DNA of 64,000 nucleotides from an uncultured Clostridia bacterium (GTDB lineage: Bacteria; Bacillota; Clostridia; TANB77; CAG-508). The stretch spans positions 24,460 to 88,459 of the forward strand of contig CAUWFE010000002.1 in assembly GCA_963558185.1 (NCBI GenBank). The letters run 5' to 3'. The notes below the pieces were generated by a model. The model saw only the letters and a program-made list of their open reading frames with translations, did not search any database and was not told where the DNA came from. The position numbers were made by a program, and so were the translations under genes. Positions 5,168 to 64,000 of this stretch are shown one piece after another (the first letter of the stretch is position 1; every line of letters begins with the position of its first letter).

Positions 5168-5899
5168 ATGAAAGAGAACATGGAGTATTTTTTTGAAGGA
5201 TTAGAAGAACTGAAAGCCACTGTGCCAGAATTGTATGCACGGTATTCCCACAATAATTTGTTAATTGAACAAATTAATTACGGAGAAAATAAAAGATGGC
5301 TGGTTACCTATGTAAAAAAAGATGGTGACATGGAAAGAGAATATGTTTCTTTAAATGATGGTGTATACCCGGTATTAAAGCTGATTGCAAATGCTCTTTT
5401 AGATACAATGGCAGAAAACAGAGAAGCTTTAAAGCATACTGAAACAGGACAAAACATAACAGGGGAGTACATACTAAGACAAACAATTTTAAGATTCATA
5501 ACCAGAAATTTTATGTTACAGAAATACGAAGAATTAAATACTGAAGGTAGAGATACAGTTAAACAGCTGATGTCAGATGTAAAAAAGCTTAAAGAAAGCA
5601 GTTTACAAAAGGTAAAGACAAAAGAGGCAAAACAAATTGTATCTATCCTAGATATGGATGATTCAAAAGAGTATATTATAACATGGAAATTAAAGCAGAA
5701 AACAACAGGAGGAATCGAATATATCACAGCTGAAAACAGTATAGTAACCAAAACAGATCTGTTTATAGTAGTGTCCTATTGTCACGAAATGCTCCGAATG
5801 CTTCGGAAAAAAATGAAAAGATTTAATGAAAATGATGATTTCTACAAAGATGCTATTTTCTTAATAGAAAAAATTGAAAATTTCGAAGCAACATTATAA
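5168..5899 (+). CDS. hypothetical protein (243 aa), orphan
   Basis: Strong RBS AAGGAGG seven nt upstream of the ATG. The coding sequence is visibly richer in G/C than its neighbours. No motif recognised. Confidence 0.65.
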   Translation: MKENMEYFFEGLEELKATVPELYARYSHNNLLIEQINYGENKRWLVTYVKKDGDMEREYVSLNDGVYPVLKLIANALLDTMAENREALKHTETGQNITGEYILRQTILRFITRNFMLQKYEELNTEGRDTVKQLMSDVKKLKESSLQKVKTKEAKQIVSILDMDDSKEYIITWKLKQKTTGGIEYITAENSIVTKTDLFIVVSYCHEMLRMLRKKMKRFNENDDFYKDAIFLIEKIENFEATL

Positions 5900-32294: not shown

Positions 32295-33938
32295 ATGAAA
32301 AATATTTTAAAAATAGCAGTTATATTAATACTATTTTTTATCACATTTACAACTGTATCAAATGCATCAGAAGAACAAATAGATGTTACATCAAACTTTA
32401 AAGATGAAAATTTGAGACAAGCAATTTTAGAAATAGTAAGGGAAGTTACAAAGGATCCAAATAAAACAAATATAACTATAGGTGATATAAATAAAATAAC
32501 ATCAGATAACTTACCAAGTGGAAAGCAATTACACTTAGCAGGAAAAGGAATAAAAAGTTTAGAAGGTCTTGAACTATTTTCTGGAAAGAACATTGAATGG
32601 ATATATTTAGACTGGAATGAAATTGCAGATATATCAATACTTTCAAGGTTTACTTCATTAACAAAAATAAGTATGAGTAGTAATAAAATAACAGATATCA
32701 CACCACTTGCAAAACTAACAAATTTAGTGAACTTAAATATAAGCAATAATCAAATAAGTTCATTAGAACCAATTAAAAATTTAACAAATATACAATACAT
32801 ATATGCAGATAACAATAAAATAACAGAAATAACAGCACTTAGTAAATTAACTAATGCAAAAGAAATTTCAGTTTCAGGAAATCAAATTACAAATATAGAT
32901 TTGCTAACTAAACTTCCTAATTTATATGGATTAGATGCAAGTAGAAATAATATAGCTAATATAGAAAATTTTCAAATAAATACACATATTACAAATATGA
33001 ATTTAAATTATAATAATTTAAGTACATTACAAGGAATACAAAATATTAAAAATTTACAAATATTTAGTGCAAGTAATAATAAAATAGTTGATATTACACC
33101 AATTACAGACTTAAGAGAATTATATAATTTAAATTTAAATGCAAATAAAATTACAGACATAACTAAAATTAATAAAATGAAGCAATTAGAATATCTATAT
33201 TTAGATGCAAATAATATAATTTATGTACAAGCAATAGATGAGCTACCAAACTTAAAAAAAGTAACATTATATAATCAAACATATGAATTTATTATAAAAG
33301 AGCAATATAACCAAGAAGATTTACAAATAAATTTAACGGATTATTTTATAAAATTAAAAGAAACAGGGCATAAACTGTATGAACAAAATGCAAAAGTAGA
33401 AATACAAAATTCAACAGGATATACATTAGCTCAAGACTGGTCGTACATTATTATTAAACAAAGTGATTTACAAAACAAACCAATCATAATGAAAATATAT
33501 GATAATGAAAATTCATATATTACATTTACAATAAAACAAGAAATTCCACAACAAGAGTTAGCAAGCACAATATATACCATAGAAAATAAATATGTAAAAA
33601 ATGTACCAGCAAAAACAACTAAAGAAGTATTTAACCAAAATGTAAATATACCAGTAGAAATACTTCGAAATGATAAAGCATTGCAAAATACACAAATAGT
33701 AGCAACTAAAGATGTAGTTAAACTAAACTCAAAATCATATATAATCATTGTAGATGGAGATATTACAAAAGATGGATTAGTTAATATTTTTGATATAATG
33801 AAAATTAAACGAAAAGTAATAGGACTAGTAGAATTAGATGTGGATACAAATATGGCAGCAGATATAACAAAAGATGGAAATGTGAACATTATGGATGTCA
33901 TGAAAATGCTAAGAATGGTAAGTAATGAAACAAACTAA
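32295..33938 (+). CDS. Secreted leucine-rich-repeat (internalin-like) protein with a C-terminal dockerin module
   Basis: Signal peptide (MKNILKIAVILILFFITFTTVSNA). About a dozen 22-aa LRRs (LTNLVNLNISNNQISSLEPIKN). Two dockerin-type Ca-binding segments, DITKDGLVNIFDIMKIKRKV and DITKDGNVNIMDVMKMLRMV. Confidence 0.8.
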   Translation: MKNILKIAVILILFFITFTTVSNASEEQIDVTSNFKDENLRQAILEIVREVTKDPNKTNITIGDINKITSDNLPSGKQLHLAGKGIKSLEGLELFSGKNIEWIYLDWNEIADISILSRFTSLTKISMSSNKITDITPLAKLTNLVNLNISNNQISSLEPIKNLTNIQYIYADNNKITEITALSKLTNAKEISVSGNQITNIDLLTKLPNLYGLDASRNNIANIENFQINTHITNMNLNYNNLSTLQGIQNIKNLQIFSASNNKIVDITPITDLRELYNLNLNANKITDITKINKMKQLEYLYLDANNIIYVQAIDELPNLKKVTLYNQTYEFIIKEQYNQEDLQINLTDYFIKLKETGHKLYEQNAKVEIQNSTGYTLAQDWSYIIIKQSDLQNKPIIMKIYDNENSYITFTIKQEIPQQELASTIYTIENKYVKNVPAKTTKEVFNQNVNIPVEILRNDKALQNTQIVATKDVVKLNSKSYIIIVDGDITKDGLVNIFDIMKIKRKVIGLVELDVDTNMAADITKDGNVNIMDVMKMLRMVSNETN

Positions 33939-33941
33939 AAA

Positions 33942-33985
33942 ATGTAACAAAATTGCAACAAACTTGTAACAAAAATGTAAATTAA
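33942..33985. repeat. Tandem 11-bp phased repeat (ATGTAACAAAA / TTGCAACAAAC / TTGTAACAAAA / ATGTAAATTAA)
   Basis: Read directly. The array starts 4 nt after the LRR-dockerin stop codon and has the same motif and period as 3806-3849. Confidence 0.75.
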
Positions 33986-34075
33986 AAAAGATTGTATAAA
34001 AAACATTAATATGATATCATAAACAAAAATATGATAATTAAATAAGAAAGGAGAATATCCATTACTGGATATAAA

Positions 34076-34876
34076 TTGAATATGCAAAAGAATGTAAAAA
34101 TTATAGTAAGTATTTTAATAACAATAACAATTTTTTTAATATCAACAACTGTTCAAGCGGAAGAAATATACAAGGTAGATATGGGCTTAGTTGCTGAAAA
34201 TATGACAATAGATTTAGATAAACAAAAAGAAGTAGCTATATATTTGAAGTTAACAGATTTTAATTTGCCAGATAAAATTTTAGGTTATGAAGCAGTTTTA
34301 AATTACGATACAAATGTATTTTCAAAAGTAACAGTAACAGGATTAAATGACTGGATAGGAATAAGTAGCAATAATGATATATATACAGAATCAACAAAAA
34401 AATTAGTATCAACAACTTCAAATGCAACTATTAATACAAATGTAGCAAAACTAGTATTTACAATAAGTGAAACAGCAAAAGCACAAGATACAACAATAAC
34501 ATTGAATAAATTATTGATAGCAGCAGGAAATGAAGAAAGTACACAGGTAGAAGAAAAAACAAAAAGTATAACATTACACTTAGAAAAAAAACAACAAGAA
34601 CCAGCACCAGATGAAGGTGAAAATAATAAACCAAATAACGAGCAAAAACCAGACAATAAAAATGAAGTAACAAATGCTCAAAAAAATGAAGTAGCAAATG
34701 AAACTGTAAATCAAGATAGAGCTAATATAACAGTTACTACTCCTACTGATGATACACAAGCAAATGGGAAAATTCCACAAACAGGAGCTAATATGCAAGT
34801 ATTAGGTGCTATAGTAATAATTGCTATTTTAGGAATTATAATCTATATTAGATATCGTTCAATAGAAATAAAATAG
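34076..34876 (+). CDS. Cell-wall-anchored cohesin-domain protein (sortase substrate)
   Basis: Signal peptide. A cohesin-like module (GYEAVLNYDTNVFSKVTVTG...VAKLVFTISE). A P/E/N/K-rich linker. C-terminal IPQTG followed by a hydrophobic helix and a basic tail (an LPXTG-type sorting signal). The start is TTG 34076 or ATG 34082. Confidence 0.75.
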   Translation: MNMQKNVKIIVSILITITIFLISTTVQAEEIYKVDMGLVAENMTIDLDKQKEVAIYLKLTDFNLPDKILGYEAVLNYDTNVFSKVTVTGLNDWIGISSNNDIYTESTKKLVSTTSNATINTNVAKLVFTISETAKAQDTTITLNKLLIAAGNEESTQVEEKTKSITLHLEKKQQEPAPDEGENNKPNNEQKPDNKNEVTNAQKNEVANETVNQDRANITVTTPTDDTQANGKIPQTGANMQVLGAIVIIAILGIIIYIRYRSIEIK

Positions 34877-44566: not shown

Positions 44567-45274
44567 GTGCCTGAAATAAAATATAAAAGAGTTTTACTTA
44601 AACTAAGTGGTGAAGCACTTGCAGGAAAGCAAAGTACAGGAGTTGACGCTGAAACTATTGGAAAAATTTGCGACAAAATAAAAGAAATTGTAGACTTAGG
44701 AGTAGAAGTTGCAATAGTCGTAGGTGGAGGAAACTTTTGGAGAGGTAGAAATGGACATCAAATGGATAGGTCAACAGCAGATTATATGGGAATGCTTGCA
44801 ACAGCAATGAATGGATTAGCATTGCAAGATGCATTAGAAGCAAGAGGAGTATTTTCAAGAGTACAAACAGCAATAGAAATGCGAGAAATTGCAGAACCAT
44901 TTATTGTAAGAAAAGCAGAAAAGCATTTACAAAAAGGAAGAGTAGTAATATTTGCTTGTGGAACTGGTCATCCATATTTCACAACAGATACAGCAGCAGT
45001 ATTAAGAGCAATAGAAATAAATGCAGAAATTATATTATTAGGAAAATCAATAGATGGAGTATATTCTGCAGATCCAAAAATAGACAAAAATGCAATAAAA
45101 TATGATGAAATTTCATATTTAGATGTATTAAATAAAGACTTAAAAGTAATGGACTCAACAGCAACAGCAATGTGTAGAGATAATAAATTACCTTTACTTG
45201 TTTTTGGAATTGAAGATGCTGAAAATATAGTAAGAGCAATTAAAGGTGAAAAAATAGGTACAATTGTAAAATAA
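44567..45274 (+). CDS. pyrH: UMP kinase
   Basis: [25 protein letters not shown] start after AAGGAG. Confidence 0.9.
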
Positions 45275-45302
45275 ATAATAATTTTGAAAAGGAGAGAATA
45301 TA

Positions 45303-45851
45303 ATGGATTATACAAATATTGAAGAAAAAATGAATAAAACAATTAGTGTGTTAGAAGAAAAATTATCAGAGGTAAGAGCAGGGAGAGCGAACCCAGCAAT
45401 TTTAAATAAAATAATGGTAGAATATTATGGAACACCAACACCAATTAACCAAGTAGCTGGAATTTCTGTTCCAGAAGCAAGACTAATAGTAATTCAACCA
45501 TGGGATATGAGTGTATTAAAAGATATAGAAAGAGCAATATTAGCATCAGATATAGGAATTACACCAAACAATGATGGTAAAGTAATTAGATTAGCTTTTC
45601 CAGAATTAAATGAAGAAAGAAGAAAAGAATTAGTAAAAGAAATTCGTAAAACAGTAGAAGAAACAAAAGTTGCTATAAGAAGTGTAAGACGTGATGGAAT
45701 AGATGAATTTAGAAAAAAACAAAAAGATTCAGAAATTACAGAAGATGAATTAAAAATGGCAGAAAATGAAATTCAAAAAATTACAGATAAAAAAATATTA
45801 GAAGTTGATGGAATCCTAGAAAAGAAAGAAAAAGAAATTATGACAGTATAA
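45303..45851 (+). CDS. frr: Ribosome recycling factor
   Basis: Typical RRF sequence (VRAGRANPAILNKIMVEYYGTPTPINQVA) and size. Confidence 0.9.
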   Translation: MDYTNIEEKMNKTISVLEEKLSEVRAGRANPAILNKIMVEYYGTPTPINQVAGISVPEARLIVIQPWDMSVLKDIERAILASDIGITPNNDGKVIRLAFPELNEERRKELVKEIRKTVEETKVAIRSVRRDGIDEFRKKQKDSEITEDELKMAENEIQKITDKKILEVDGILEKKEKEIMTV

Positions 45852-45870
45852 TAAAAAGAAAGGATAAGAT

Positions 45871-46578
45871 ATGAATAAGTTAGAAATGCCAAAACATATA
45901 GCAATTATAATGGATGGAAATCGTAGATGGGCACGAAATAAAGGAATAGACATTAGACTAGGTCATAAAGAAGGTGCTAAAACATTAGAAAATATAGTAA
46001 GATATGCAAATAAAATTGGACTACAATATATAACTGTTTATGCTTTTTCAACAGAAAATTGGAAAAGAACAGAAGAAGAAGTAGGAGCTTTAATGTTATT
46101 ACTTAAAAATTATTTAGACGATTATAGCAAAAGGGCAGATACAGAAAATATTAAAGTAAAAATTATTGGAGATATTGAAGGAATGCCTAAGGGAATGCAA
46201 TCAAGTATGTATCAATGCATGGAAAGAACAAAAAATAATACAGGAGTTACATTTACAATTGCAATTAATTATGGAGGTAGAGACGAATTAGTAAAAGCAG
46301 TAAAGAAAATATCAACAGATGTAAAAGAAGGAAAAATATCTATAGATGACATTAATGAAGAAACAATTTCAAACTCACTTTACACAGCAGGAATTCCAGA
46401 TCCGGATTTACTAATTAGAACAAGTGGAGAATTAAGAACAAGTAATTTTCTACCTTGGCAATTAACATATACAGAATTCTTATTTATTGATAAAAATTGG
46501 CCTGATTTTACAAATCAAGATTTAGATTATGCTATAGAAACATATAATAAAAGAACAAGGAAATTTGGAGGAAAATAG
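45871..46578 (+). CDS. uppS: Isoprenyl transferase (undecaprenyl diphosphate synthase)
   Basis: HIAIIMDGNRRWA, FSTENWKR, RTSGE.R.SNFLPWQ. Confidence 0.9.
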   Translation: MNKLEMPKHIAIIMDGNRRWARNKGIDIRLGHKEGAKTLENIVRYANKIGLQYITVYAFSTENWKRTEEEVGALMLLLKNYLDDYSKRADTENIKVKIIGDIEGMPKGMQSSMYQCMERTKNNTGVTFTIAINYGGRDELVKAVKKISTDVKEGKISIDDINEETISNSLYTAGIPDPDLLIRTSGELRTSNFLPWQLTYTEFLFIDKNWPDFTNQDLDYAIETYNKRTRKFGGK

Positions 46579-46635
46579 AAAATATCCTCCTAATTTCAGT
46601 ATTTCAAAAGATAACGAAAGGAATGGAAAAAATAA

Positions 46636-47436
46636 ATGTTAAAAAGATTTACATCAGCACTTATGTGGTTTCCACTAGTTTTAATAATACTATTAATCAG
46701 AAACAAATATATTGTAGATATTTGTTTAGCAATTATTGCATATCTAGCATTAAATGAGTATTTTAATGCAGTTTCAAATGTATCAAATCCAGTAAGATGG
46801 ATAGGATATTTATGTTGTGCATCAATAGCAATTATTCATCTTGTGCCAATAGAATGGCTACCAATAATAGTAAGTATATCAGTACCAATTTTGCTTCTAT
46901 TATTATTTGCACAAGTAATAGCTACAGATATGAAAACAACATTTAAAGATATTGCATATACTTTTTTTGGAATTTGCTATGTTGTATTTTGCATAATGTT
47001 TATTGCATTTTTAGATGGAACCAAAAATGGAAATATTTTAATTTGGTATGCAATAATAGCAGCTTGGGGAACAGACATATTTGCATTTTTTACAGGAAAA
47101 TTGATAGGAAAGCACAAATTTAGTAAAGTAAGTCCTAAGAAATCAATTGAAGGATGCATAGGAGGAACAATAGGAGCTGTTATTTTAATTTTATTGTATA
47201 CTATGGCAGTTAATTATTTTTGGAACTTGCAATATTCATATGTAGTTATGGCTGTAATAGGAGTAGCATTAAGCTTAATTGGACAAATGGGAGACTTAGC
47301 AGCATCTAGCATAAAAAGATATGTAGATATTAAAGACTATAGTAATTTAATACCAGGGCATGGAGGAATGTTAGATAGAATAGACAGTTTGATTTTTATT
47401 GCACCATTTGCATATGTATTATTTAGACTTTTATAA
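46636..47436 (+). CDS. cdsA: Phosphatidate cytidylyltransferase
   Basis: SSIKRYVDIKDYSNLIPGHGGMLDRIDS signature. Confidence 0.9.
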   Translation: MLKRFTSALMWFPLVLIILLIRNKYIVDICLAIIAYLALNEYFNAVSNVSNPVRWIGYLCCASIAIIHLVPIEWLPIIVSISVPILLLLLFAQVIATDMKTTFKDIAYTFFGICYVVFCIMFIAFLDGTKNGNILIWYAIIAAWGTDIFAFFTGKLIGKHKFSKVSPKKSIEGCIGGTIGAVILILLYTMAVNYFWNLQYSYVVMAVIGVALSLIGQMGDLAASSIKRYVDIKDYSNLIPGHGGMLDRIDSLIFIAPFAYVLFRLL

Positions 47437-47512
47437 AATAACATAAATTGTTAGTTTGTGCATATTACATTGTGAAATGCAAAAAACTAATTATAAGAAA
47501 GGAAGAAAAATA

Positions 47513-48772
47513 TTGATTTCTATTTTAATTTCACTAATAAAAATTGTTTTTTTATTAGGTTTTCTTATTTTTATACATGAGTTAGGACATTTTGCAGTAG
47601 CAAAATTATGTAAAGTAAAAGTAAATGAATTTGCTATAGGCTTTGGACCTACAATTTGGAGAAAACAAGGAAAACAAACTAAATATGCTTTAAGGTTAAT
47701 TCCTTTAGGAGGATTTATTAGCATGGAAGGAGAAGATGAGCATTCTGAAGAAGAAGGCTCTTTTACAAAAGCTAGTATTCCTAAAAGAATGGCAATAGTA
47801 GTAGCAGGTGCTACAGTAAATATATTATTTGCAATTATAGTATATTTTATATTAGCATCAACACAAGGAAACTTTATTTCTACTAAAATAGAGAGTATGG
47901 TGCCAGAATATGCAGCAGTTAATTCGGGGTTACAAGTAAATGATGAAATAGTAGCAGTAGATGGAAAAAATATTCATTTAAGAACAGATATAGATGAAAT
48001 ATTACAAAAAAGTGAAGGAAAAACATTACAAATCACAGTAAAAAGAAATGGAGAAAATGTAACTATTCCAGTTACTCCAACTGCAAAAGAATATAAAAGT
48101 ACAGGAATATATCTGCAAGGTGGAGATTCAGAAACTACAAAAATATTAATGGTAGATAAAGGCTCAACATCAGAAGCACATGGAATTCAAGCAAATGATA
48201 AAATAATAGAAATAAATGATAATGTAGTAACAAATCAAGAGCAAATAATAGAAAAAATTAATCAAACTCAAGGAGATAATTTAAAATTAAAAATTCAAAG
48301 AGGAAATGAAGAAATAATAATAGAATTGCCACTTGATAAAGTAAATGCTTATTATTTAGGTGTACAATTCCAACAAGCAGATAACAGTTTTGGAAATTCA
48401 ATATATTATGGTTTTTGGAATACAATAGATTTTCTATCATCAATTGTTCAAAATGTAGCAAATATGTTTACAGGCAATGTATCAATAAATCAAATGATGG
48501 GACCTGTTGGAATTTCTGAAGTAGTAGCAAAAACAAATGGAATAAAAGAATTTGTATATATGTTAGCTTTAATTTCAATATCTTTAGGAATTACTAATTT
48601 ATTACCAATTCCAGCATTAGATGGAGGTAAATTATTATTACTTATAATAGAAGCAATACGAGGAAAACGATTAAGTGAAAAAATGGAAATGAATATTCAA
48701 TTACTAGGTTTTGCATTTTTAATTACATTATCACTAATTGTAACATATCAAGATATTTTAAGACTAATGTAG
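47513..48772 (+). CDS. rseP: Site-2 (RIP) zinc metalloprotease RseP/RasP
   Basis: HELGHF, a PDZ region, and NLLPIPALDGG. I place the start at TTG 47513 after AAAGGAAG. Confidence 0.85.
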   Translation: MISILISLIKIVFLLGFLIFIHELGHFAVAKLCKVKVNEFAIGFGPTIWRKQGKQTKYALRLIPLGGFISMEGEDEHSEEEGSFTKASIPKRMAIVVAGATVNILFAIIVYFILASTQGNFISTKIESMVPEYAAVNSGLQVNDEIVAVDGKNIHLRTDIDEILQKSEGKTLQITVKRNGENVTIPVTPTAKEYKSTGIYLQGGDSETTKILMVDKGSTSEAHGIQANDKIIEINDNVVTNQEQIIEKINQTQGDNLKLKIQRGNEEIIIELPLDKVNAYYLGVQFQQADNSFGNSIYYGFWNTIDFLSSIVQNVANMFTGNVSINQMMGPVGISEVVAKTNGIKEFVYMLALISISLGITNLLPIPALDGGKLLLLIIEAIRGKRLSEKMEMNIQLLGFAFLITLSLIVTYQDILRLM

Positions 48773-49030
48773 ATGTTACTAGTTAAAGGTTTCTTTAAGT
48801 TAATATAAGGAATGCCTTGGAATATAAGCTTTTTATTGCATTCCTTAGGTTTATTACGAAATTTAAGAAATTCTAACTTATTTTATGGCACCCTTCCACT
48901 AAAGTGAACTCTTTCCAAAAAATTACACAGAATTTCTAAAATTTCTCCATAAACATTCGTTATTCCATTCAAAGCTTATATTCCAAGGCATTCTAATAAA
49001 GAAATAATAAAAACCATTAACTAGTAACAT
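48773..49030. repeat. Palindromic intergenic element (long imperfect inverted repeat) carrying a nested insertion
   Basis: Outer inverted repeat ATGTTACTAGT (48773-48783) / ACTAGTAACAT (49020-49030). Inner arms GAATGCCTTGGAATATAAGCTTT (48810-48832) / AAAGCTTATATTCCAAGGCATTC (48972-48994). A related hairpin lies at 53933-53990. Confidence 0.8.
48844..48960. mobile_element. MITE-like 117-bp insertion in the loop of the palindromic element
   Basis: Flanked by 11-bp direct repeats TTATTGCATTC (48833-48843) and TTATTCCATTC (48961-48971). The uninterrupted copy at 53.9 kb has a single TCATTACATTC loop. The insert ends are imperfect inverted repeats (GTTTAT..GAAATTT.AGAAATTCT). Confidence 0.45.
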
Positions 49031-49112
49031 GTAGATTAAAAAGAAGGCATATTGACTTGCAAGTGCAAAAGTAAATTAACCTTTACAATAAAAATAGGAG
49101 GACAAATTTTAA

Positions 49113-52100
49113 ATGGGATGTTCAACAGATAAAACTTTAAAAGAAATATTTAGAGACTATAATTCGCAAAGTTTTGCTTTAAACAATGCAAAAATAGAAA
49201 ATATGAATTTATATAAAAAAACGAATACACTAGAAATAATTTTAATTTCTGATGTTCATATCCCAATAAAAGAAATTTATGGGCTAGAAAAGTTTTTAGA
49301 AGTTCGTTTTGCAATTAAAAATATAAGTGTAAAGGTAAACCAAAAAGAAAATCAAGAAGAAAAAGAAGAAAACATTTGTGAACAAGCAGGTGCAGGAATA
49401 ATAGAAAATCAAATTTTAAAAGAATGGAAAGATATTGTAGAATATGTATCTCATAAACATCCTATGGTAAAAGCAATATTACATGAAAGTAGCATATCAG
49501 TGGAAGGAAAGGCAGCAAATGTAATACTACAAATGAAAGGAAAAGATTTTCTATTAGCACGAAAATTTGATGAAATTTTATCAAATATATTTGAAGATAT
49601 ATTTGGAAAAAAGTATAAAGTAAGCTATATTGAAGATATTACAGAAGAGAATATCTTAAAATATCAAGAATATAGTAGAAAAATGCAAGAAGAAGTAATA
49701 AAAGAAGCAAGTAAAGAGGCTTTAGAAAGTGCACACAATAAAGAAGAGAAAAGTAAAAATACACAAGAAATAACAGAAAATACAGCACCTAAAAATGCAC
49801 AAAACAATATTCCTAAGGCTCCAATGCCTCCTGAGCCACAACATGTAGAAGAACCAGAAGAGCATAGTCCACTAATATTAGGAAGGAATGCTAATATAAA
49901 AGAGCAACTAGTAAAAGTAGCAGATTTATCTGTAGATAGTGGAAAAATAATGCTAGAAGGAGAAGTAATAAATACAGATTCACGAGAGTTAAAAAGTGGA
50001 AAACATCTATTAATGTTTGATTTATATGATGGTACAAGTACTATTACATGTAAAGCTTTTGCAGAAGCTGAAAAAGCAAAAAATGTAATGAGCAGAATAA
50101 AAAGTGCAAAAGGTTTACGATTATCAGGAACAGCACAATTTGACCCATTTGCAAAAGAATTAGGTGTAATTGCAAATGTTATTGTAGAAACAGAAGGAAA
50201 GAAAAAGCAAGAAAGAGTAGATAACAGTAAAGTAAAAAGAGTAGAATTACATATGCATACACAAATGAGTCAAATGGATGGAGTAACCCCAGCAAAAGAC
50301 TTAATAAAAAGAGCAATGAAATGGGGAATGAAATCTATTGCTATAACTGACCATGGAGTAGTACAGGCTTTTCCAGATGCACATAAAATGTTGGGATTTG
50401 ATAATCCAGATATGAAAATAATATATGGAGTAGAGGCATATCTTGCACCAGATAAAGTAGCTATTGTAAATTCTCCTAAAGGCCAAAAAATACAAGATGC
50501 AACTTATTGTGTATTAGACTTAGAAACAACTGGACTTTCATTTAGAACTGAAAAAATAACTGAAATAGGAATTATGAAAGTAAAAAATGGTGAAGTTATA
50601 GATGAATTTAGCTGCTTTGTTAATCCTGAAAAACCAATTCCACAAAAAGTGGTAGAAGTTACAAACATAACAGATGAAATGGTAAAAGACGCAGAAACAA
50701 TAGATAAAGTTTTACCTAAAGTAATTGATTTTATAGGAGATAGCGTATTAGTAGCACATAATGCAGACTTTGATATAGGATTTTTAAAATTCAACAGTAA
50801 ACTATTAGGTTTATCAATAGAAAATACATATATAGATACCTTAAGACTTGCAAAAGAGCTTTTTCCAGAATTTAAAAAATATAAATTAGGGATGATAGCA
50901 GATAAACTTGGAATTGTTGTAGAAGTTGCTCATAGGGCATTAGATGATGTTGATACAACTGTAAAAGTATTTCGTGAAATGATTAAAATGATGCAAGAAA
51001 AAGGTGTAGAGACAGTTGAAGATATAGATACAAAACTACAAGGAAAAGTAGATTATAAAAAATTACAAACATATCATGCAATAATACTTGCAAAAGATTA
51101 TGTAGGTTTACGAAATTTATACAAATTAGTATCTATATCACATTTAGACTATTTTTATAAAAAGCCACGTATATTAAAATCAATATACAAAAAATATTCA
51201 GAAGGGCTTATATTAGGAAGTGCATGTGAAGCAGGAGAATTGTACAGAGCAATTTTAGAAGGAAAAGATGATGAAGAAGTAGAAGATATAGCCAAAGACT
51301 ATGATTACTTAGAAATTCAACCTATTGGTAATGGAATGCATTTAGTAAGAGAAGGAGTAGTGCCAGATACAAAGGCATTAGAAGATATAAATAAAAAAAT
51401 AGTAGCCTTAGGTGAAAAATTAGGAAAATTAGTTGTAGCTACTTGCGATGTTCATTTTATGGATCCACAAGATGAAATATATAGAAGAATTTTAATGGCT
51501 GGTCAAGGCTTTAGTGATGCAGATGAACAAGCACCATTATATTTAAGAACTACAGAAGAAATGCTACAAGAATTTCAATACTTGGGTGAAGATAAAGCAT
51601 ATGAAGTAGTAGTAACAAATACAAATAAAATTTCAGATATGTGCGAAAGAATTTCTCCAATATCGCCAGAAAAATGTCCGCCATATATTGAAAATTGCGA
51701 GCAAACAATTAAAGATATAGCATATGATAAAGCACATGAATTATATGGAGATCCATTACCAGAAATAGTGCAAAGTAGATTAGACAAAGAACTTACATCA
51801 ATTATAAAAAATGGATTCTCAGTTATGTATATAATTGCACAAAAACTAGTGTGGAAGTCAAATGAAGATGGATATATAGTAGGTTCAAGAGGTTCTGTTG
51901 GTTCATCATTTGTAGCAAATATGACAGGAATTACAGAAGTAAATTCATTACCACCTCATTATAGATGTCCAAATTGTAAATACTCAGATTTTACTGATTA
52001 TGGATATAAAAATGGATTTGATTTACCAGATAAACCTTGTCCAAAATGTGGACATCCACTTGCAAAAGATGGAATGGATATTCCATTTGAAACTTTCTTA

Positions 52101-53561
52101 GGATTTAATGGAGACAAAGAACCAGATATAGACTTAAACTTCTCAGGAGAATATCAAGCAAAAGCACATAAATATACAGAAGTAATTTTTGGAAAAGGAA
52201 CAACATTCAAAGCAGGAACAGTAGGAACAGTAGCAGATAAAACAGCTTTTGGATATGTAAAAAAATATTACGAAGAAAGAGGAATTCCAGTAAACAACGC
52301 CGAAGTATTAAGAGTTTCAGCAGGTTGTACAGGTATAAAAAGAACAACAGGTCAACACCCAGGAGGAATTATAGTTGTACCAAAAGGAAGAGAAATATAT
52401 GAATTTACACCAGTACAACATCCAGCAGACGACCCTAATTCAGATATAGTAACAACACACTTTGATTATCACTCAATAGACCAAAACTTATTAAAATTAG
52501 ATATATTAGGACATGATGATCCAACAATGATACGTATGTTATTTGATTTAACAGGAATAGACCCAACAAAAGTGCCTTTAGATGATAAAGAAACAATGTC
52601 AATTTTTAGTTCTACAAAAGCATTAGGAGTTACAAAAGAACAAATAAGGTCAGAAGTAGGAAGCTATGGTATACCAGAATTTGGTACAAAATTTGTTAGA
52701 GGAATGTTAGTAGATACAAGACCAACAACATTCGAAGAATTACTAAGAATTTCAGGACTATCACATGGTACTGATGTGTGGCTAGGTAATGCACAAACAT
52801 TAATAGAAGAAGGCACAATAAAACTAGATGAGGCAATATGTACAAGAGATGATATTATGATTTATCTAATAAAACAAGGCTTACCACCACAAAAAGCATT
52901 TAAAATAATGGAATGTGTACGTAAAGGAAAAGCAACTAAAGACCCAGAAAAATGGAAAGAATATGAAGCAATAATGAGAGAAAACAATGTACCAGAGTGG
53001 TATATAAGTTCTTGTAAAAAAATTAAATACATGTTCCCTAAAGCCCATGCAGCAGCATATGTAACAAATGCTTTTAGAATAGCATGGTTTAAAGTACATT
53101 ATCCAACTGCATATTATACAGCATATTTCACAATTAGAGCAGATGAATTTGATAGTGATATAATGTGTTATGGAGAAGAAAAGGTAAAAAATAAAATGAA
53201 AGAAATAGAATTACAAGGAAATAGTGCAACAACAAAAGATAAAAATATGTATGCAATATTAGAACTTGTAATGGAAATGTATGAAAGAGGAATTAATTTT
53301 TTACCAATAGATTTATATAAATCACATTCAACAAAATTTATAATAGAAAAAGATGGAATAAGACCACCATTAAATAGTATACCAGGACTTGGAACAGTTG
53401 CAGCAGAAGGAATAGAAGCAGCTAAAAAACAAGGCAAGTTTATGTCAATAGATGACATGAAAATACGTTCTAAAATAGGAAAATCAGTAATAGAATTATT
53501 GGACAAAGTAGGTTGCTTAAAAGGAATGAGTCAAAGTAATCAAATGAGTTTATTTGGTTAA
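49113..53561 (+). CDS. polC: DNA polymerase III alpha subunit, PolC type
   Basis: 1482 aa. PHP domain (HMHTQMSQMDG), 3'-5' exonuclease motifs (LDLETTGL, AHNADFDIGFL, HRALDD), a Zn-finger CPNC...CPKC, and the polymerase core PDIDLNF. Confidence 0.95.
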   Translation: MGCSTDKTLKEIFRDYNSQSFALNNAKIENMNLYKKTNTLEIILISDVHIPIKEIYGLEKFLEVRFAIKNISVKVNQKENQEEKEENICEQAGAGIIENQILKEWKDIVEYVSHKHPMVKAILHESSISVEGKAANVILQMKGKDFLLARKFDEILSNIFEDIFGKKYKVSYIEDITEENILKYQEYSRKMQEEVIKEASKEALESAHNKEEKSKNTQEITENTAPKNAQNNIPKAPMPPEPQHVEEPEEHSPLILGRNANIKEQLVKVADLSVDSGKIMLEGEVINTDSRELKSGKHLLMFDLYDGTSTITCKAFAEAEKAKNVMSRIKSAKGLRLSGTAQFDPFAKELGVIANVIVETEGKKKQERVDNSKVKRVELHMHTQMSQMDGVTPAKDLIKRAMKWGMKSIAITDHGVVQAFPDAHKMLGFDNPDMKIIYGVEAYLAPDKVAIVNSPKGQKIQDATYCVLDLETTGLSFRTEKITEIGIMKVKNGEVIDEFSCFVNPEKPIPQKVVEVTNITDEMVKDAETIDKVLPKVIDFIGDSVLVAHNADFDIGFLKFNSKLLGLSIENTYIDTLRLAKELFPEFKKYKLGMIADKLGIVVEVAHRALDDVDTTVKVFREMIKMMQEKGVETVEDIDTKLQGKVDYKKLQTYHAIILAKDYVGLRNLYKLVSISHLDYFYKKPRILKSIYKKYSEGLILGSACEAGELYRAILEGKDDEEVEDIAKDYDYLEIQPIGNGMHLVREGVVPDTKALEDINKKIVALGEKLGKLVVATCDVHFMDPQDEIYRRILMAGQGFSDADEQAPLYLRTTEEMLQEFQYLGEDKAYEVVVTNTNKISDMCERISPISPEKCPPYIENCEQTIKDIAYDKAHELYGDPLPEIVQSRLDKELTSIIKNGFSVMYIIAQKLVWKSNEDGYIVGSRGSVGSSFVANMTGITEVNSLPPHYRCPNCKYSDFTDYGYKNGFDLPDKPCPKCGHPLAKDGMDIPFETFLGFNGDKEPDIDLNFSGEYQAKAHKYTEVIFGKGTTFKAGTVGTVADKTAFGYVKKYYEERGIPVNNAEVLRVSAGCTGIKRTTGQHPGGIIVVPKGREIYEFTPVQHPADDPNSDIVTTHFDYHSIDQNLLKLDILGHDDPTMIRMLFDLTGIDPTKVPLDDKETMSIFSSTKALGVTKEQIRSEVGSYGIPEFGTKFVRGMLVDTRPTTFEELLRISGLSHGTDVWLGNAQTLIEEGTIKLDEAICTRDDIMIYLIKQGLPPQKAFKIMECVRKGKATKDPEKWKEYEAIMRENNVPEWYISSCKKIKYMFPKAHAAAYVTNAFRIAWFKVHYPTAYYTAYFTIRADEFDSDIMCYGEEKVKNKMKEIELQGNSATTKDKNMYAILELVMEMYERGINFLPIDLYKSHSTKFIIEKDGIRPPLNSIPGLGTVAAEGIEAAKKQGKFMSIDDMKIRSKIGKSVIELLDKVGCLKGMSQSNQMSLFG

Positions 53562-56327: not shown

Positions 56328-56732
56328 ATGGGGGAATATGGAATGATAAAAATAGAAAATGTAACTAAGGAATATGTGAAAGGAAAAAAGTCTGTTGATA
56401 ATATAAATTTAGAAATAAAAGATGGAGAAATATTCGGTTTTTTAGGACCAAATGGAGCTGGAAAAACGACCACAATAAAAATGATTACAGGAATTTTAAA
56501 TTCTGATAATGGAAAAATTACAATAGATGGAAAAGATATTGAAAAAGAGCCTTTACAAGCAAAAAAGAATTTTGGTTATGTTCCAGATTCACCAGATATG
56601 TTTTTACGCTTGAAAGGAATTGAATATTTAAACTTTATGGCTGATATATATGAAATTCCGTCACATACTGATATCTGGCTTAATTGGAATGATAATAATG
56701 AGTTTTTCAAAATTTATGAAAGACAAAAATAG
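56328..56732 (+). pseudogene. ABC transporter ATP-binding protein, truncated after about 105 aa
   Basis: Walker A (GPNGAGKTT) and the Q-loop region are present. The ABC signature and Walker B are missing. The reading frame leaves ATPase-like sequence after MADIYEIP, near 56655. Confidence 0.6.
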
Positions 56733-57507
56733 ATTTCAATTAATAGCTACAACCTTCTCTATTGTATTAGTAATGATTTTTGTATTTTTTACATCAGGAG
56801 GAAATGGAAAGTTAAATGATGAACAAATACTTCAATTTATTATGAAGGCAAATAGTTTAGTTGAAATGTTACGAGGATATTTTCCGACTCTAGGTTCAGC
56901 AATAGAGGCATTAGATACAGCAAATATTTTAACATCTATATTAGGGTTATTAAAGTTAGTAGGAATTACATTAATTATATACATAGGGTACATATGGATA
57001 GCAAAAAAACTTTATTTAAAAGGTGCAGTTGGTAATTTAGAAAGTGGAAAGAAAGTAAACAAAAAATTAAATGAAGAAAAAGCATTTAAAGGTGGAAAAC
57101 TATGGAAAAGTTATGCAGGAAAAGAATGGAAAACATTATTACGAAATCCAATTTTCTTAATGCAATGTATATTACCTACTATACTATTTCCAATTATAAT
57201 ACTAGGAATAATTGGGTTACAAGTATTTTCAATACCTTCACAAGAGCTTAATCAAATATCAAAAGAAATAGCTGGCAATGATTCTACAATTATAGTTTTA
57301 ATAATATTAGGAATAAAACAAAATATTAATTTAATATGGCCTACTATTTTAGGTATGATAAATATAGTAATGTATATAGGAATTGGAACTTTAGTAACAA
57401 ACTTAAATGTACCAGTATATGTAACCTTAATATTACTTGCTACATTGTATATAGTACTAGCTATGTTAGTAAAAAAATATATAGTAAATTTTAAATTCAT
57501 TTTATAA
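56650..57507 (+). pseudogene. ABC-exporter permease fragment (N-terminally truncated; overlaps the truncated ATPase ORF)
   Basis: A hydrophobic multi-TM ORF begins inside the ATPase ORF in another frame, with no RBS. This is consistent with a deletion fusing two adjacent genes. Confidence 0.45.
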
Positions 57508-60067: not shown

Positions 60068-61003
60068 ATGTTATCAGTATTAGAAGTAAAAAGAAGATTA
60101 CCAGATGAATTTGTAGAAAACTTGTATGAATTATATTCTCCTGGAACAGTAGATAAAATCTTATCTGGAATGTCAGGAGAAAGAAGTACAACTATAAGAG
60201 TAAATACACTAAAAACAACAATGTTAGAACTTATGAAAAATATAAAAGAAGAAGCAATTAAGTTTAACAGAGTATTATGGTATGAAAATGCATTGGAAAT
60301 TATAAATGCCAATGAAAAACAATTGCAAAAATTATTAAACTATGAAAATGGGGAATTTTATTTGCAAAGCTTGTCTAGTATGGTTCCACCACTTGTATTA
60401 GAACCAGAGGAAAATGAAAAAATTTTAGACTTAACAGCCGCTCCAGGTAGCAAAACTACTCAAATGAGTATGATGATGCAAAATAAAGGATATATATTAG
60501 CAAATGAATTAGATAAAATCAGATGTGAAAGATTAAAATATAATGTAAAAATGCAAGGAGCAAAAATTGTAGAAGTAAAAAATGGAAGAGGAGAAAAAAT
60601 TGGAGAACAATATCCAGAATTCTTTGATAAAGTTTTATTAGATGCACCATGTAGTGGAGAAGGAAGATTTTTAGCAAATCAAGTAGGAACTTATAGAAAT
60701 TGGTCTATAAAAACTGTAAAACAATGTGCAAAAATTCAAAAAAAATTAATAAAAAGTGCATATCAAGCTTTAAAAACAAATGGAATTATGGTATATTCTA
60801 CATGCACTTTGAATAAAGAAGAAAATGAAGAAATTTTACAATGGGCAATAGAAAATATGAATTTACAAATGCTAGATATATCAATAAAAATACCGAATAC
60901 ATTAAAAGCTTTTGGAGATAAAAACATAGAAAAAGCAATTCGTATGTTACCTTCTAAAAGCCAAGAAGGATTTTTTGTTGCAAAATTGAGAAAGAGGGGA
61001 TAA
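60068..61003 (+). CDS. RsmB/RsmF-family rRNA (cytosine-C5) methyltransferase
   Basis: DLTAAPGSKTTQ (SAM-binding motif), DAPCSGEG (motif IV), VYSTCT (motif VI). Confidence 0.8.
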   Translation: MLSVLEVKRRLPDEFVENLYELYSPGTVDKILSGMSGERSTTIRVNTLKTTMLELMKNIKEEAIKFNRVLWYENALEIINANEKQLQKLLNYENGEFYLQSLSSMVPPLVLEPEENEKILDLTAAPGSKTTQMSMMMQNKGYILANELDKIRCERLKYNVKMQGAKIVEVKNGRGEKIGEQYPEFFDKVLLDAPCSGEGRFLANQVGTYRNWSIKTVKQCAKIQKKLIKSAYQALKTNGIMVYSTCTLNKEENEEILQWAIENMNLQMLDISIKIPNTLKAFGDKNIEKAIRMLPSKSQEGFFVAKLRKRG

Positions 61004-61006
61004 ATT

Positions 61007-62167
61007 TTGACAGACTTATTAATAAAAATATTTATAAAAGATAAAAATGTAAAAGATTTAAACGTAAGAAACAAATATGGTATGTTATCGAGTATTACAG
61101 GAATTATTGTTAATATTTTATTATCTATTTTCAAATTAATGATAGGAATTTTATCAAATTCTATGTCTATAATTTCAGATGCTTTAAACAATATAACAGA
61201 TGCAGGCTCATCAGTAGTTACAATGATAGGCTTTAAACTATCAAAAAAGAATGTAGATGCAGATCACCCTTGGGGACATGGAAGAATGGAATATATTACG
61301 GCATTTATTGTAGATATGCTTATTATTTTAGTAGGAATTGAATTATTTAAATCATCTATAGATAAAATTATAAATCCAGAGCTTCCACAAATTAATACAA
61401 TTACAATTGTATTATTAGTAATTGCGATTATTACAAAACTATGGCTATTTTTATTCTACAAAAAAATTGCTAAAACTATAGATTCAGAAGCAATTAAAGG
61501 AAATGCTTATGACAGTATTTCAGATACAATATCTACATTTGTTGTATTAATTTCTGCATTAGTTGCAAAATTTGCAGGTGTTTCAATAGATGGATATGTT
61601 AGTATTTTAGTATCTGTATTTATACTATTCACAGGCTTTAAAGCCATGAAGGAAACAATAGATATTTTGTTAGGTAGCAAGCCAGATGCTGATTTTGTAA
61701 AAGAAATAGAAGAATTTACAAAAAAATACGATATGGTAATTGGTATTCATGACATTATGGTACATGACTATGGACCAGGAAGAAAAATAATATCTTTCCA
61801 TGCAGAAGTACCAGCAGATTGTGACATTTGTAGAGCACATGATGTAATTGATCAAATGGAGCAAGATATATATGATAATTTTAATTGTATAACAACAATA
61901 CATATGGATCCAATAGTAATAGATGATGAAGAAGTAAATCAAATGAGAGAAATGGTAATAAAAATTGTAAAAGAATATAACCCAGAATTTTCAATACACG
62001 ATTTTAGAATGACTGATGGCGGAGAAAGAATAAATTTAATATTTGATTTAGTATTACCAAGAGAAAATTTAGATAGAAAAAAGATAGCAGAAGAATTAGT
62101 AAAGAAAATACATGAGAAAAATAAAAAATACTTTGCAGTAATAAAAGTAGAAAATTCATATGTATAA
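61007..62167 (+). CDS. Cation diffusion facilitator family transporter
   Basis: Six TM helices with SDALNNITDAGSS in TM2 and a C-terminal cytoplasmic domain. TTG start. Confidence 0.8.
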   Translation: MTDLLIKIFIKDKNVKDLNVRNKYGMLSSITGIIVNILLSIFKLMIGILSNSMSIISDALNNITDAGSSVVTMIGFKLSKKNVDADHPWGHGRMEYITAFIVDMLIILVGIELFKSSIDKIINPELPQINTITIVLLVIAIITKLWLFLFYKKIAKTIDSEAIKGNAYDSISDTISTFVVLISALVAKFAGVSIDGYVSILVSVFILFTGFKAMKETIDILLGSKPDADFVKEIEEFTKKYDMVIGIHDIMVHDYGPGRKIISFHAEVPADCDICRAHDVIDQMEQDIYDNFNCITTIHMDPIVIDDEEVNQMREMVIKIVKEYNPEFSIHDFRMTDGGERINLIFDLVLPRENLDRKKIAEELVKKIHEKNKKYFAVIKVENSYV

Positions 62168-62221
62168 TAAGAAAAAATAGTAACTAAAATTAATTTGATT
62201 AATTTGATTAATGTTAAATTC

Positions 62222-62249
62222 TTGAAATTTTAAAAAAATATGATATAAT
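62222..62249 (+). promoter_or_regulatory. Extended -10 sigma-A promoter for the large ncRNA
   Basis: TTGAAA (62222-62227), a 16-nt spacer ending in TGA, then TATAAT (62244-62249). Confidence 0.65.
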
Positions 62250-62255
62250 AGTATC

Positions 62256-62850
62256 GATGGTGCATTATTCTAGTCGTACGGTCTATTATGAGGGTGGGGC
62301 TAAAAATCCACTAAAGGGCACATCGTTGAAGTTTCTTGTTTATGCGCGAAATGCCGGTTTTGTGTGTATCCAGGGAGTTAAGAGGTTAGGGCATTATATA
62401 ATGGCATATATAACAACCCCTGATTTCGCCTGAGGCCTAAGGGTATTTGAAATAAATTCTTTTTCAAAAAACTTTGGGTAAAACCTATGTGAGTGCCAAG
62501 ACACAAAAGCATAGAGTAGCCTGTCTTGAGTGATAGTATTGGGATTAATTTACAAAGAATACATAATTTGGCCAAATTATATATTTTATCGATTATGAAA
62601 TTACTATTGCAAAAAAGACTAATAATAGGTATCAGTATGTTAAGGAAAACTTCTAGAATGTTTGTTAAAAAAACAAGAAAGTCTAGGGATTAAGGTACGG
62701 ATTTAAGTGGCGATCTAGTTTCTACAAATTCTTGTAGGTATTTTTTTGAAATGGAAACAGCTAAACAGTAATGTTTAGTAGAAAATAGAGAAATTCTACT
62801 AGACCTAAACCGTAAAATTTACTTAGACTTTTACCATCTATTTTTTTATA
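62256..62850 (+). ncRNA. ole: Large structured ncRNA, probably OLE (ornate, large, extremophilic) RNA
   Basis: A noncoding gap of about 600 nt that is clearly richer in G/C than its flanks. It has its own promoter and many local helices (for example GATGGTGC...GCACATC, CAAGACA...TGTCTTG, CTACAA...TTGTAG). It sits directly upstream of a small 4-TM protein, which is the reported OLE-oapA arrangement. No covariance-model search was run. Confidence 0.6.
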
Positions 62851-62865
62851 AAATAGGAGCAAAAA

Positions 62866-63435
62866 ATGAAAAATAACAATGAAAAAAAAGATAATTCTAA
62901 CCTGAAGTGGTTTGTAACAATATTTATTACAACATTTATATTGTCAATCACTTTTTCTTTTATATCAACAAATGCAATTTCTAATTTAGAACTTTTACCA
63001 GCAATTTTAATTTTACTTGCAACAATTATAGTAGGAATTATATTTGACATAATAGGCGTTGCAGTAACAGTTGCAAAAGAGCAAGAATTCCATGCAAAAG
63101 CAACTAAAAAAGTAAAAGGAGCTAAAACTTCAATAAAATTAATTCGAAATTCAGCAAAAGTAGCTAATATTTGTGCAGACGTAATAGGTGACATATGTGG
63201 AGTACTAAGTGGTTCTATTGCAGCATTAGTTTCAATGAAAATTACCCAAAGTTTTAATTTAACATTCAATATTCAATTTATAGTAAGTGCATTAGTGGCT
63301 TCTCTTACTGTAGGTGGAAAAGCACTAGGAAAAGGTTTTGCACAAAAAAATGCAACAGAAATTGTACATATGGTAGGTAAAATGTTAAGAGTGTTTTCTA
63401 AAGAAGAAAAGAAAAAAGTAAAAGTAGAAAATTAA
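62866..63435 (+). CDS. oapA: Small 4-TM membrane protein, probably OLE-associated protein A
   Basis: 189 aa with four predicted TM helices and the Asp-containing motifs FDIIGVAV and ADVIGDICGV. It lies immediately downstream of the OLE-like RNA. Confidence 0.55.
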   Translation: MKNNNEKKDNSNLKWFVTIFITTFILSITFSFISTNAISNLELLPAILILLATIIVGIIFDIIGVAVTVAKEQEFHAKATKKVKGAKTSIKLIRNSAKVANICADVIGDICGVLSGSIAALVSMKITQSFNLTFNIQFIVSALVASLTVGGKALGKGFAQKNATEIVHMVGKMLRVFSKEEKKKVKVEN

Positions 63436-63460
63436 TGTATGCATAAAAGGAGAGAAAATA

Positions 63461-64000
63461 ATGGAGAAATTAAAACAGTTTTGCTATAATAAAAAATACA
63501 CCATAATTTCAGCAATAGCCATATTTATAATTGCTATCTTTTTATGCTTTTGGATAACACAAAAACAAGGATTCCATGAAGATGAAATATTTTCATATGG
63601 CTCATCAAATTACAAATGGGATAGTATGTTTCAATTGGTAGGAAAATCTGACTATACAAATACAGCAATAGAAAAATATATTATAGCAGATAGCTTTTCA
63701 GATACATTAAAAAATATAAAATATTATCTTCAAAATCCGCAAGAATTAGAAGAATTAAAACAACAAGTTAGGGACCAAGAAAAAACAGTATGGAAAACTA
63801 AAGAAGATGCAAAAGAATATGTAACTATAGGAAATGGAGATGTATTTAATTATCTTTCAGTATATTATAATCAGTCAAGAGATGTGCATCCACCATTATT
63901 TTATTTTTTAGTACATTTTGTATCTAGTATTGCATATGGCAGTTTTTCAAAATACATAATTTTTGCTATTAATTTAGTATTTATGCTACTTACATGTAAT
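63461..64000 (+). CDS. GT39/ArnT-like membrane glycosyltransferase, 3'-truncated by the window edge
   Basis: ATG 63461 after AGGAGAG, open to the window end. It has an N-terminal TM helix and a DVHPPLFYFLVH motif typical of PMT_2/ArnT-like proteins. It is absent from the ORF track because it runs off the end. Confidence 0.6.
   Translation, partial: MEKLKQFCYNKKYTIISAIAIFIIAIFLCFWITQKQGFHEDEIFSYGSSNYKWDSMFQLVGKSDYTNTAIEKYIIADSFSDTLKNIKYYLQNPQELEELKQQVRDQEKTVWKTKEDAKEYVTIGNGDVFNYLSVYYNQSRDVHPPLFYFLVHFVSSIAYGSFSKYIIFAINLVFMLLTCN

Follow-up and report, generated by a model that had tools for sequence, protein, structure and literature searches.

Introduction

OLE RNAs are among the largest conserved bacterial RNAs without an established biochemical function, and reduced versions of them help to define which core is indispensable. 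In Halalkalibacterium halodurans, OLE forms part of a membrane ribonucleoprotein that protects the cell against alcohol, cold, Mg2+ and carbon-source stress (PMC3413148, PMC11332333, PMC10898510). OLE has been found to be abundant, stable and localised to the membrane, and to form RNA dimers, in H. halodurans and for other OLE RNAs (PMC3413148, PMC12286853), and in the family as a whole conservation exceeds 97% at about 25% of its nucleotides (PMC12265935). Like GOLLD, ROOL and the raiA motif, OLE is a large, highly structured, conserved noncoding RNA of Bacillota and gut bacteria (PMC12286853); unlike those families, it has an obligate membrane-protein partner gene. Here we analyse an OLE RNA gene (ole) and the oapA gene that directly follows it in a 64,000-nt stretch of DNA from an uncultured Clostridia bacterium, to which we refer as the window.

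OLE RNAs of the TANB77 clade were described by Fernando and Breaker, who in 2024 searched the GTDB for OLE and reported 2,822 hits in Bacillota (PMC11332333). They found that an OLE form called 'variant 1' is commonest in TANB77, that it has shorter P7, P8 and P9 helices and that in many cases the nucleotides to which OapB binds are missing from the tip of its P13; the OapB and OapC proteins are largely absent from TANB77 and RF39 (PMC11332333). The OLE-oapA locus of the window is real and already known in kind, being an ordinary family member in a clade for which a reduced variant has been published. The identification itself is of little weight, since any Rfam scan finds the RNA and the published GTDB-wide survey covers TANB77 (PMC11332333), and our results for the clade agree with the published conclusions and add no new principle. 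Taken as a whole, the locus is very probably a standard ole-oapA unit that works as its homologues do, with a reduced particle and with neighbouring genes that are specific to its lineage.

The gap upstream of oapA encodes a complete OLE RNA

We scanned the whole window against Rfam 15, and OLE was the sole family matched anywhere in it. The match covers positions 1-616 of the 616-position model and is not truncated, the RNA match being 613 nt long, and its E value excludes chance (Table 1). It lies in a 698-nt gap between the stop codon of a cation diffusion facilitator (CDF) metal transporter gene at 62167 and the oapA start codon, 13 nt past the end of the match on the same strand. The gap is without a convincing open reading frame (ORF). 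The preliminary description of this DNA, which was made from the letters without database searches, had proposed an OLE RNA in a noncoding gap of about 600 nt that stood out by its G/C content, its many local helices and its own extended -10 promoter, and had named the Rfam OLE model as the means of checking it. With a score of 365.9 bits over the full model the identification was borne out, and the features that had led to it are likewise present. The G+C content is 0.33-0.35 across 62200-62649 in 300-nt windows, compared with about 0.22-0.29 in the flanks, and the RNA as a whole is AT-rich, with 32% GC. The strand from 62256 to 62853 folds with a predicted energy of -145.7 kcal/mol, compared with a mean of -126.4 kcal/mol for dinucleotide shuffles (z = -2.94), and none of 100 shuffles was as stable. 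When the Rfam consensus structure is mapped onto the window, 145 of its 157 pairs are canonical (92%), and the non-canonical pairs concentrate at the tips of variable hairpins. The conserved single-stranded blocks of the family are also present, among them CUAAAAAUCC, GGAUUAAGGUACGGAUUUAAGUGG and GACCUAAACCGUAAAAUUUAC.

A survey of relatives, for which one genome per GTDB species was scanned, gave 80 loci whose OapA proteins are 63-79% identical to that of the window. When the window OLE served as the nhmmer query, each of the 87 loci fetched, a few of them cut by contig ends, proved to have a homologue on the oapA strand immediately 5' of the gene; the RNA and OapA thus keep strictly together in the clade, along with the promoter described below. 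For covariation analysis, 77 full-length OLE sequences of the clade were aligned with the Rfam structure. In this alignment 86.2% of the cells are paired, whereas sliding the 3' partners by 1-3 columns lowers the figure to 36-50%. Both sides of the pair change in 88 of the 157 pairs, and none of 500 shuffles reaches the observed values. The ornate structure of OLE, with its roughly 25 helices, is therefore under selection in this lineage of gut Clostridia. The weakest helices in the pairing test are the variable tips of P5 and P8. The long P3 hairpin, which has been proposed to span the membrane in models based on cryo-electron microscopy (PMC12265935), has 20 pairs in the clade; 92.9% of its cells are paired and nine pairs change on both sides. 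Among the 11 loci that were scored with Rfam, the range is 295-367 bits, and the window RNA lies at the top of it.

The window RNA resembles the full-length OLE of H. halodurans in its full 616-position match, in its helix order and conserved blocks, in having its own promoter and in having oapA next to it (PMC3413148). It differs in lacking the GNRA loop and the bulge of P13, in its low GC content and in lying outside a dxs-rrmJ-nadK-argR-recN cluster.

Several smaller variations were observed in the alignment. The window RNA has an extra C at 62430, in the J4a/5 joining region, that is unique among the 77 aligned sequences. In H. halodurans OLE, this strand belongs to the k-turn to which OapC binds. 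The tip of P5 varies widely in length within the clade, and the window version is among the longer ones. In five relatives (L046, L060, L061, L067 and L069) the P8 hairpin is missing entirely, along with its conserved UUUGGCCAAA tip (alignment columns 405-480), and the four of them that were scored with Rfam still reach 295-331 bits. A further relative (L034:5070-5860, on contig CAMMLJ010000009.1 of a metagenome-assembled genome) carries the 3' domain of OLE only (Rfam model positions 436-595, 100 bits), with an intact oapA downstream. At about position 5668 this fragment is fused to an ATP-binding cassette (ABC) transporter ATPase ORF that is broken in mid-domain. The junction is either a chimeric assembly or a genuinely decayed ole gene.

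The OapB site in P13 is missing and the P14.1 loop is kept

Binding of OapB requires a GNRA loop plus a bulge of one nucleotide within P13 (PMC7936274). The P13 hairpin of the window RNA has an AUUC loop and no bulge, indicating that the primary, high-affinity OapB site of H. halodurans OLE is absent. The loop and the bulge are features of the full-length OLE class and do not define the family (PMC7936274, PMC11332333). Loss of the loop is general in the clade: only 2 of the 77 aligned members have a GNRA loop in P13, and the window and the other 75 do not, so that this site is dispensable there. The GNRA loop that closes P14.1, which is a weak secondary OapB site in H. halodurans (PMC7936274), is never lost, being GUAA or GCAA in all 77.

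The window RNA thus shows the P13 trait of 'variant 1', and its host belongs to the same lineage as that TANB77 form or to one close to it (PMC11332333). 'Variant 1' was described as also having shorter P7-P9. The window RNA is nearly as long as the Rfam model and, in a comparison with that model, has almost no deletions in this part: its P7-P9 regions align with gaps of 1-2 nt only. Neither oapB nor oapC is found among the called genes of the 64-kb window, which says little on the whole genome. Given that P13 lacks both the GNRA loop and the bulge, as in 'variant 1', the OLE particle of this lineage is therefore probably a reduced one that does without OapB and is built mainly of OLE and OapA.

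The protein encoded downstream is OapA

The preliminary description had noted a 189-residue protein with four transmembrane segments and the motifs FDIIG and ADVIGDI, and had made its homology to OapA a check on the whole proposal. Both motifs are present, at residues 60-64 and 104-110, and Kyte-Doolittle hydropathy gives four hydrophobic segments at about 13-38, 42-70, 102-124 and 132-154. The second motif contains the sequence D105-V-I-G-D109, which fits the DxxxD motif that sets OapA apart and that CNNM domains lack (PMC11332333). This motif is invariant in all 26 aligned homologues, as are D61, E72, E74 and H76. In size (20.4 kDa, compared with about 21 kDa), in its four hydrophobic helices, in its DxxxD motif and in the position of its gene directly behind ole, the protein is like the known OapA.

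OapA has no family model in Pfam or NCBIfam, and the search of these libraries gave a sub-threshold CNNM match and noise. The CNNM match (PF01595) scored 16.2 bits against a cut-off of 28.4, and in published work OapA is the next-best match to the CNNM model after MpfA (PMC11332333). An AlphaFold2 model (predicted local distance difference test, pLDDT, 70.5) has helices at 9-39, 43-79, 86-130 and 136-161 and a C-terminal amphipathic helix. The best Foldseek match to it in the PDB is the archaeal CNNM protein MtCorB (7m1t), a weak match with a probability of 0.99, an E value of 0.04 and a template modelling (TM) score of 0.36; the same protein, M. thermophilus CorB (7M1U), is the best structural match reported for OapA (PMC11332333). 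A PDB sequence search for a solved OapA structure returned only chance-level matches to LolE (E about 0.02). The window protein is like the CNNM domain found in MpfA and CorB in its weak PF01595 match and in its fold match. It differs from these Mg2+ transporters in having only 189 residues, a CNNM score below the cut-off and no match to CBS or CorC_HlyC domains in Pfam. The lack of CBS and CorC domains indicates that it is not an MpfA-type transporter.

Homologues of the window protein form a family of 1,150 clusters at 50% identity (E up to 0.001). One of them (P0392), 44% identical to it (E 4e-54) and with DVVGD aligned to DVIGD, is encoded between an OLE that scores 440 bits and, downstream, the genes dxs, rrmJ, nadK, argR and recN, the nadK-argR-recN part being seen in L094. 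Another (P0258) has an OLE scoring 480 bits in front of it and the dxs and rrmJ genes behind it, and homologues of 34-36% identity on short contigs also directly follow OLE. Distant homologues carry precomputed CNNM matches, and the label that IMG gives to homologues is 'CBS domain containing-hemolysin-like protein'. The DxxxD motif, the four hydrophobic segments, the weak CNNM match and the 44% identity to P0392 agree with the earlier proposal that the protein is OapA, and nothing in the analysis contradicts the identification of the locus as OLE-oapA.

A conserved promoter and the proposed mode of action

The extended -10 promoter named in the preliminary description is the best promoter-like site in 60900-64000, with 11 of 12 matches plus the TG, and transcription probably starts near 62256-62257. 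This promoter is conserved among the 77 clade sequences: a perfect TATAAT is found at its position in 63, a -35 element with at least four of six matches in 75 and the TG extension in 45, and the -10 element stands 9-11 nt before a conserved GGTGCA. The OLE of H. halodurans is likewise transcribed from its own proximal promoter (PMC3413148). No terminator-like site was found, either in the stretch from the CDF gene to OLE or in that from OLE to oapA. A T-run behind OLE, at 62843-62849, was considered as a terminator and rejected, as it is not directly behind a hairpin and is not conserved in the clade.

By homology with the H. halodurans system, the locus could work as follows. The promoter, which appears to be strong, would drive synthesis of an OLE RNA of about 600 nt, and transcription would continue, with no terminator to stop it, through oapA and probably the gene after it. 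OLE would accumulate as a stable noncoding RNA, as it does in H. halodurans. OapA, a small four-helix membrane protein distantly akin to the CNNM domain of Mg2+ transporters, would bind OLE, with two OapA molecules to each RNA, and anchor it at the membrane, and the resulting ribonucleoprotein would help this organism to survive stress from alcohol, cold, excess Mg2+ or a poor carbon source.

Table 1. Features of the ole-oapA locus and its flanking genes (positions are those of the window).
Feature	Positions	Strand	Details
CDF metal transporter gene, upstream neighbour	61007-62167	+	Cation_efflux 152 bits, ZT_dimer 70 bits, TIGR01297 199 bits
Sigma-70-type promoter of the ole-oapA unit	62222-62249	+	TTGAAA, 16-nt spacer, TG-n-TATAAT (extended -10)
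OLE RNA (Rfam RF01071)	62241-62853	+	365.9 bits (gathering score 50), E 6.6e-104; at the 5' end, about 15 nt belong to the promoter
P3 long hairpin	62332-62377	+	Structure line of the Rfam match mapped onto the window; P number assigned tentatively
P13 hairpin	62722-62737	+	CUACAA-AUUC-UUGUAG; no GNRA tetraloop, no single-nucleotide bulge
GUAA tetraloop closing P14.1	62768-62771	+	GNRA loop
Ribosome-binding site of oapA	62855-62859	+	AGGAG; 6 nt 5' of the ATG, 2 nt past the end of the Rfam match
oapA	62866-63435	+	189 aa, 20.4 kDa, isoelectric point 9.9, four hydrophobic segments, DxxxD motif
GT-C-fold membrane glycosyltransferase gene, downstream neighbour	63461-64000, cut by window end	+	Starts 25 nt past oapA

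The host lineage

The closest genomic relatives, 80 of 80, are metagenome-assembled genomes of Clostridia that live uncultured in gut or rumen; examples are Clostridium sp. CAG:440, UMGS bins and Candidatus Merdicola faecigallinarum. Merdicola faecigallinarum and Scatovivens have been placed in the family CAG-508 of the order TANB77 (PMC13106387), and the homologues of the glycosyltransferase encoded downstream of oapA include a Scatovivens protein. The placement of Merdicola faecigallinarum suggests that the host is a member or a near relative of the reduced-genome gut clade TANB77/CAG-508. Hosts of OLE are anaerobic or extremophilic Bacillota, and the window carries polC and ylbF of the Bacillota type. 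The exact OapA sequence of the window recurs in 108 blocks of public assemblies.

Neighbouring genes are specific to the lineage

The preliminary description had read the upstream neighbour of the locus as a CDF transporter and the downstream neighbour as an ArnT-like glycosyltransferase. The first reading is in accord with the Cation_efflux and TIGR01297 scores (Table 1); no equivalog model reached its cut-off for this protein, which leaves its metal specificity unassigned. We treat the CDF gene, like the gene downstream of oapA, as context of the ole-oapA unit and no more. For the second, the complete gene was taken from an identical contig (L001:10596-12320; 574 aa). Sequence searches did not identify it as ArnT: no Pfam family scored above its cut-off, EpsG reached a sub-threshold 21 bits, and the homologues have no informative names. 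The GT-C, ArnT-like fold emerged from structure prediction, since an AlphaFold2 model (pLDDT 88, predicted TM score 0.89) matched DPY19, ArnT (5f15, 5ezm), PglB, STT3 and ALG9 in Foldseek, all at a probability of 1.00. The protein has an invariant H39-E40-D41-E42 and a C-terminal alpha/beta domain. Its family, in which a search up to an E value of 0.001 gives 1,126 homologues, appears to be limited to these gut Clostridia. Because only 25 nt separate the gene from oapA, the two are probably co-transcribed. A PBP5-type carboxypeptidase gene comes next after it.

For a survey of context, three upstream and four downstream neighbours of OLE were called at each of 82 non-redundant loci and grouped into clusters, of which we annotated the main ones. 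Three arrangements recur. In about 25-30 species, OLE-oapA has an HD-domain dGTPase-like gene and a thymidylate kinase gene upstream and a short-chain dehydrogenase gene and dinB downstream; in about 12 species, it has genes for DUF8173 and endonuclease III (Nth) upstream and the ruvA and ruvB genes downstream; and in about seven species, it is followed by sbcD and sbcC. A CDF gene lies upstream of OLE in 6 of the 82 loci, namely in the window and in five other species whose orthologues are 71-74% identical, on the same strand and 0.3-3.5 kb away, and it is adjacent to OLE in two (the window and L066). Among the species surveyed, the GT-C gene stands behind oapA in that of the window only. The closest relatives by OapA and OLE (L013, L014 and L047, with 77-79% OapA identity) have the Nth and RuvAB context. 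A conserved linkage of OLE with either the CDF or the GT-C gene was therefore considered and rejected.

The preliminary description had stressed how unusual this context is, giving an isoprenoid/folate-type operon as the reported one. The context does differ from the H. halodurans type, and dxs does follow oapA at the two distant canonical loci described above. However, neither ispA nor dxs lies beside OLE in any of the 82 clade loci, whose neighbourhoods are varied, so that an isoprenoid gene context is not required and the unusual context had been given too much weight. The commonest ole neighbours across 730 species include genes for metal-ion homeostasis, DNA repair and the cell wall (PMC12265935). 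The CDF, GT-C and PBP5 neighbours are lineage-specific, and this gene context is uninformative, being non-canonical but not special. The neighbourhood may change so freely because the two-gene unit bears its own promoter.

A side observation of the survey is that the OLE-oapA loci of the clade (L008-L087) very often lie beside genes for DNA repair or nucleotide metabolism, for endonuclease III, RuvA and RuvB, DinB, SbcC and SbcD, thymidylate kinase and the HD-domain dGTPase-like protein.

Many Clostridia carry dxr between cdsA and rseP, and ispG before polC. The window has the run pyrH, frr, uppS, cdsA, rseP, polC at 44567-53561, and neither dxr nor ispG is in it, just as had been remarked from the sequence. 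Together with the lack of dxs beside oapA in the 82 loci, this raises the question of whether this reduced-genome lineage has lost or moved its methylerythritol phosphate pathway although it has kept uppS.

Alternative explanations

The reading of the locus as a standard ole-oapA unit that acts by homology has points against it. The OapA model is of moderate quality and its match to the CNNM fold is weak, by the pLDDT, E value and TM score given above. The link to H. halodurans OapA runs through homologues that were found in the canonical context. The assignment to TANB77 comes by way of one named relative with 75% OapA identity. Finally, the ends and abundance of the transcript and its continuation through oapA and the GT-C gene are predictions.

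Other explanations place the unit differently. The CDF, OLE, OapA, GT-C and PBP5 genes could form one membrane and envelope stress operon, in which the OLE-OapA particle would cooperate both with the CDF exporter, to keep divalent cations in balance, and with the enzymes of the envelope. The lack of terminator-like sites between the CDF gene and OLE and between OLE and oapA, the 25-nt spacing between oapA and the GT-C gene and the CDF orthologues that lie upstream of OLE on the same strand in five other species are consistent with such an operon, as are the resemblance of OapA to CNNM Mg2+ transporters, the Mg2+ toxicity that accompanies loss of the OLE complex and the frequency of metal-ion and cell-wall genes near ole (PMC11332333, PMC12265935). 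We nevertheless consider it unlikely: a CDF gene is near OLE in only 6 of the 82 loci and adjacent in two, the nearest species have Nth and RuvAB as neighbours instead, the GT-C gene is behind oapA in this species alone, OLE has its own conserved promoter right behind the CDF gene, and the metal specificity of the transporter is unassigned. We give a similarly small chance to the idea that the particle has been stripped to a core, consisting of an RNA without its OapB site, OapA and a conserved promoter, that moves as a two-gene cassette. This idea draws on the neighbours of the unit, which are Nth, RuvAB, DinB, SbcCD and Tmk in the relatives and the CDF exporter, the GT-C protein and PBP5 here. 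If it is true, the recurrent placement would reflect a core membrane function of OLE, for example the coupling of divalent-cation status to envelope or DNA-repair processes, and no natural system would be simpler than this lineage for finding out what OLE does.

It is very improbable that the main role of the element is in cis, with the RNA serving as an outsized structured 5' leader for the control of oapA expression and not as a free-standing noncoding RNA. Such a leader would fit the finding that OLE invariably stands next to oapA, upstream of it and on its strand, the lack of a terminator between the two, the single promoter before the RNA and the ribosome-binding site of oapA 2 nt past the end of the Rfam match. 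However, the OLE of H. halodurans is very abundant and very stable and gives a single discrete Northern band, ethanol raises its level about 7-fold and that of oapA mRNA only modestly, and it forms a particle with the proteins OapA, OapB and OapC (PMC3413148, PMC7936274, PMC9723947). The conservation of about a quarter of its nucleotides (PMC12265935) would also seem to exceed what the leader of one small gene needs. There is next to no likelihood that the window copy is a decaying, non-working remnant in a reduced genome, a view suggested by the missing P13 OapB site, by the unique extra C and by the relative that retains only the 3' third of OLE (L034). Against it, the window RNA scores at the top of the clade range with 92% of its consensus pairs canonical; no damage is seen in the promoter, the ribosome-binding site or the oapA frame, and the protein has kept every invariant residue of OapA. 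The exact OapA sequence is also found in 108 assembly blocks, and the compensatory changes across the clade indicate continued selection on the structure.

Other features of the window and of contig L094

The window contains a large surface-polysaccharide cluster at about 15184-37566, with genes for Alg14/Alg13-like and Bac_transf proteins, several GT4 and GT2 glycosyltransferases, an EpsG polymerase, a flippase, Wzz, a CpsD-like kinase and a CpsB phosphatase. In the middle of this cluster, at 32295-34876, a leucine-rich-repeat protein with a weak dockerin match is encoded beside a protein with a weak cohesin match. At 56328-57507, an ABC ATPase and a permease with 12 transmembrane segments are present as two short ORFs of 134 and 285 aa; in a near-identical strain (L003:2254-4635), the same pair is intact, with 241 and 546 aa. 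This comparison suggests an internal deletion of about 1.2 kb in the strain of the window. On one metagenome contig (L094:16931-17007), Rfam identifies a 'Gut-1 RNA' (57 bits) that lies a few kb from a canonical OLE-oapA-dxs cluster, beside a T-box-controlled tyrS gene.

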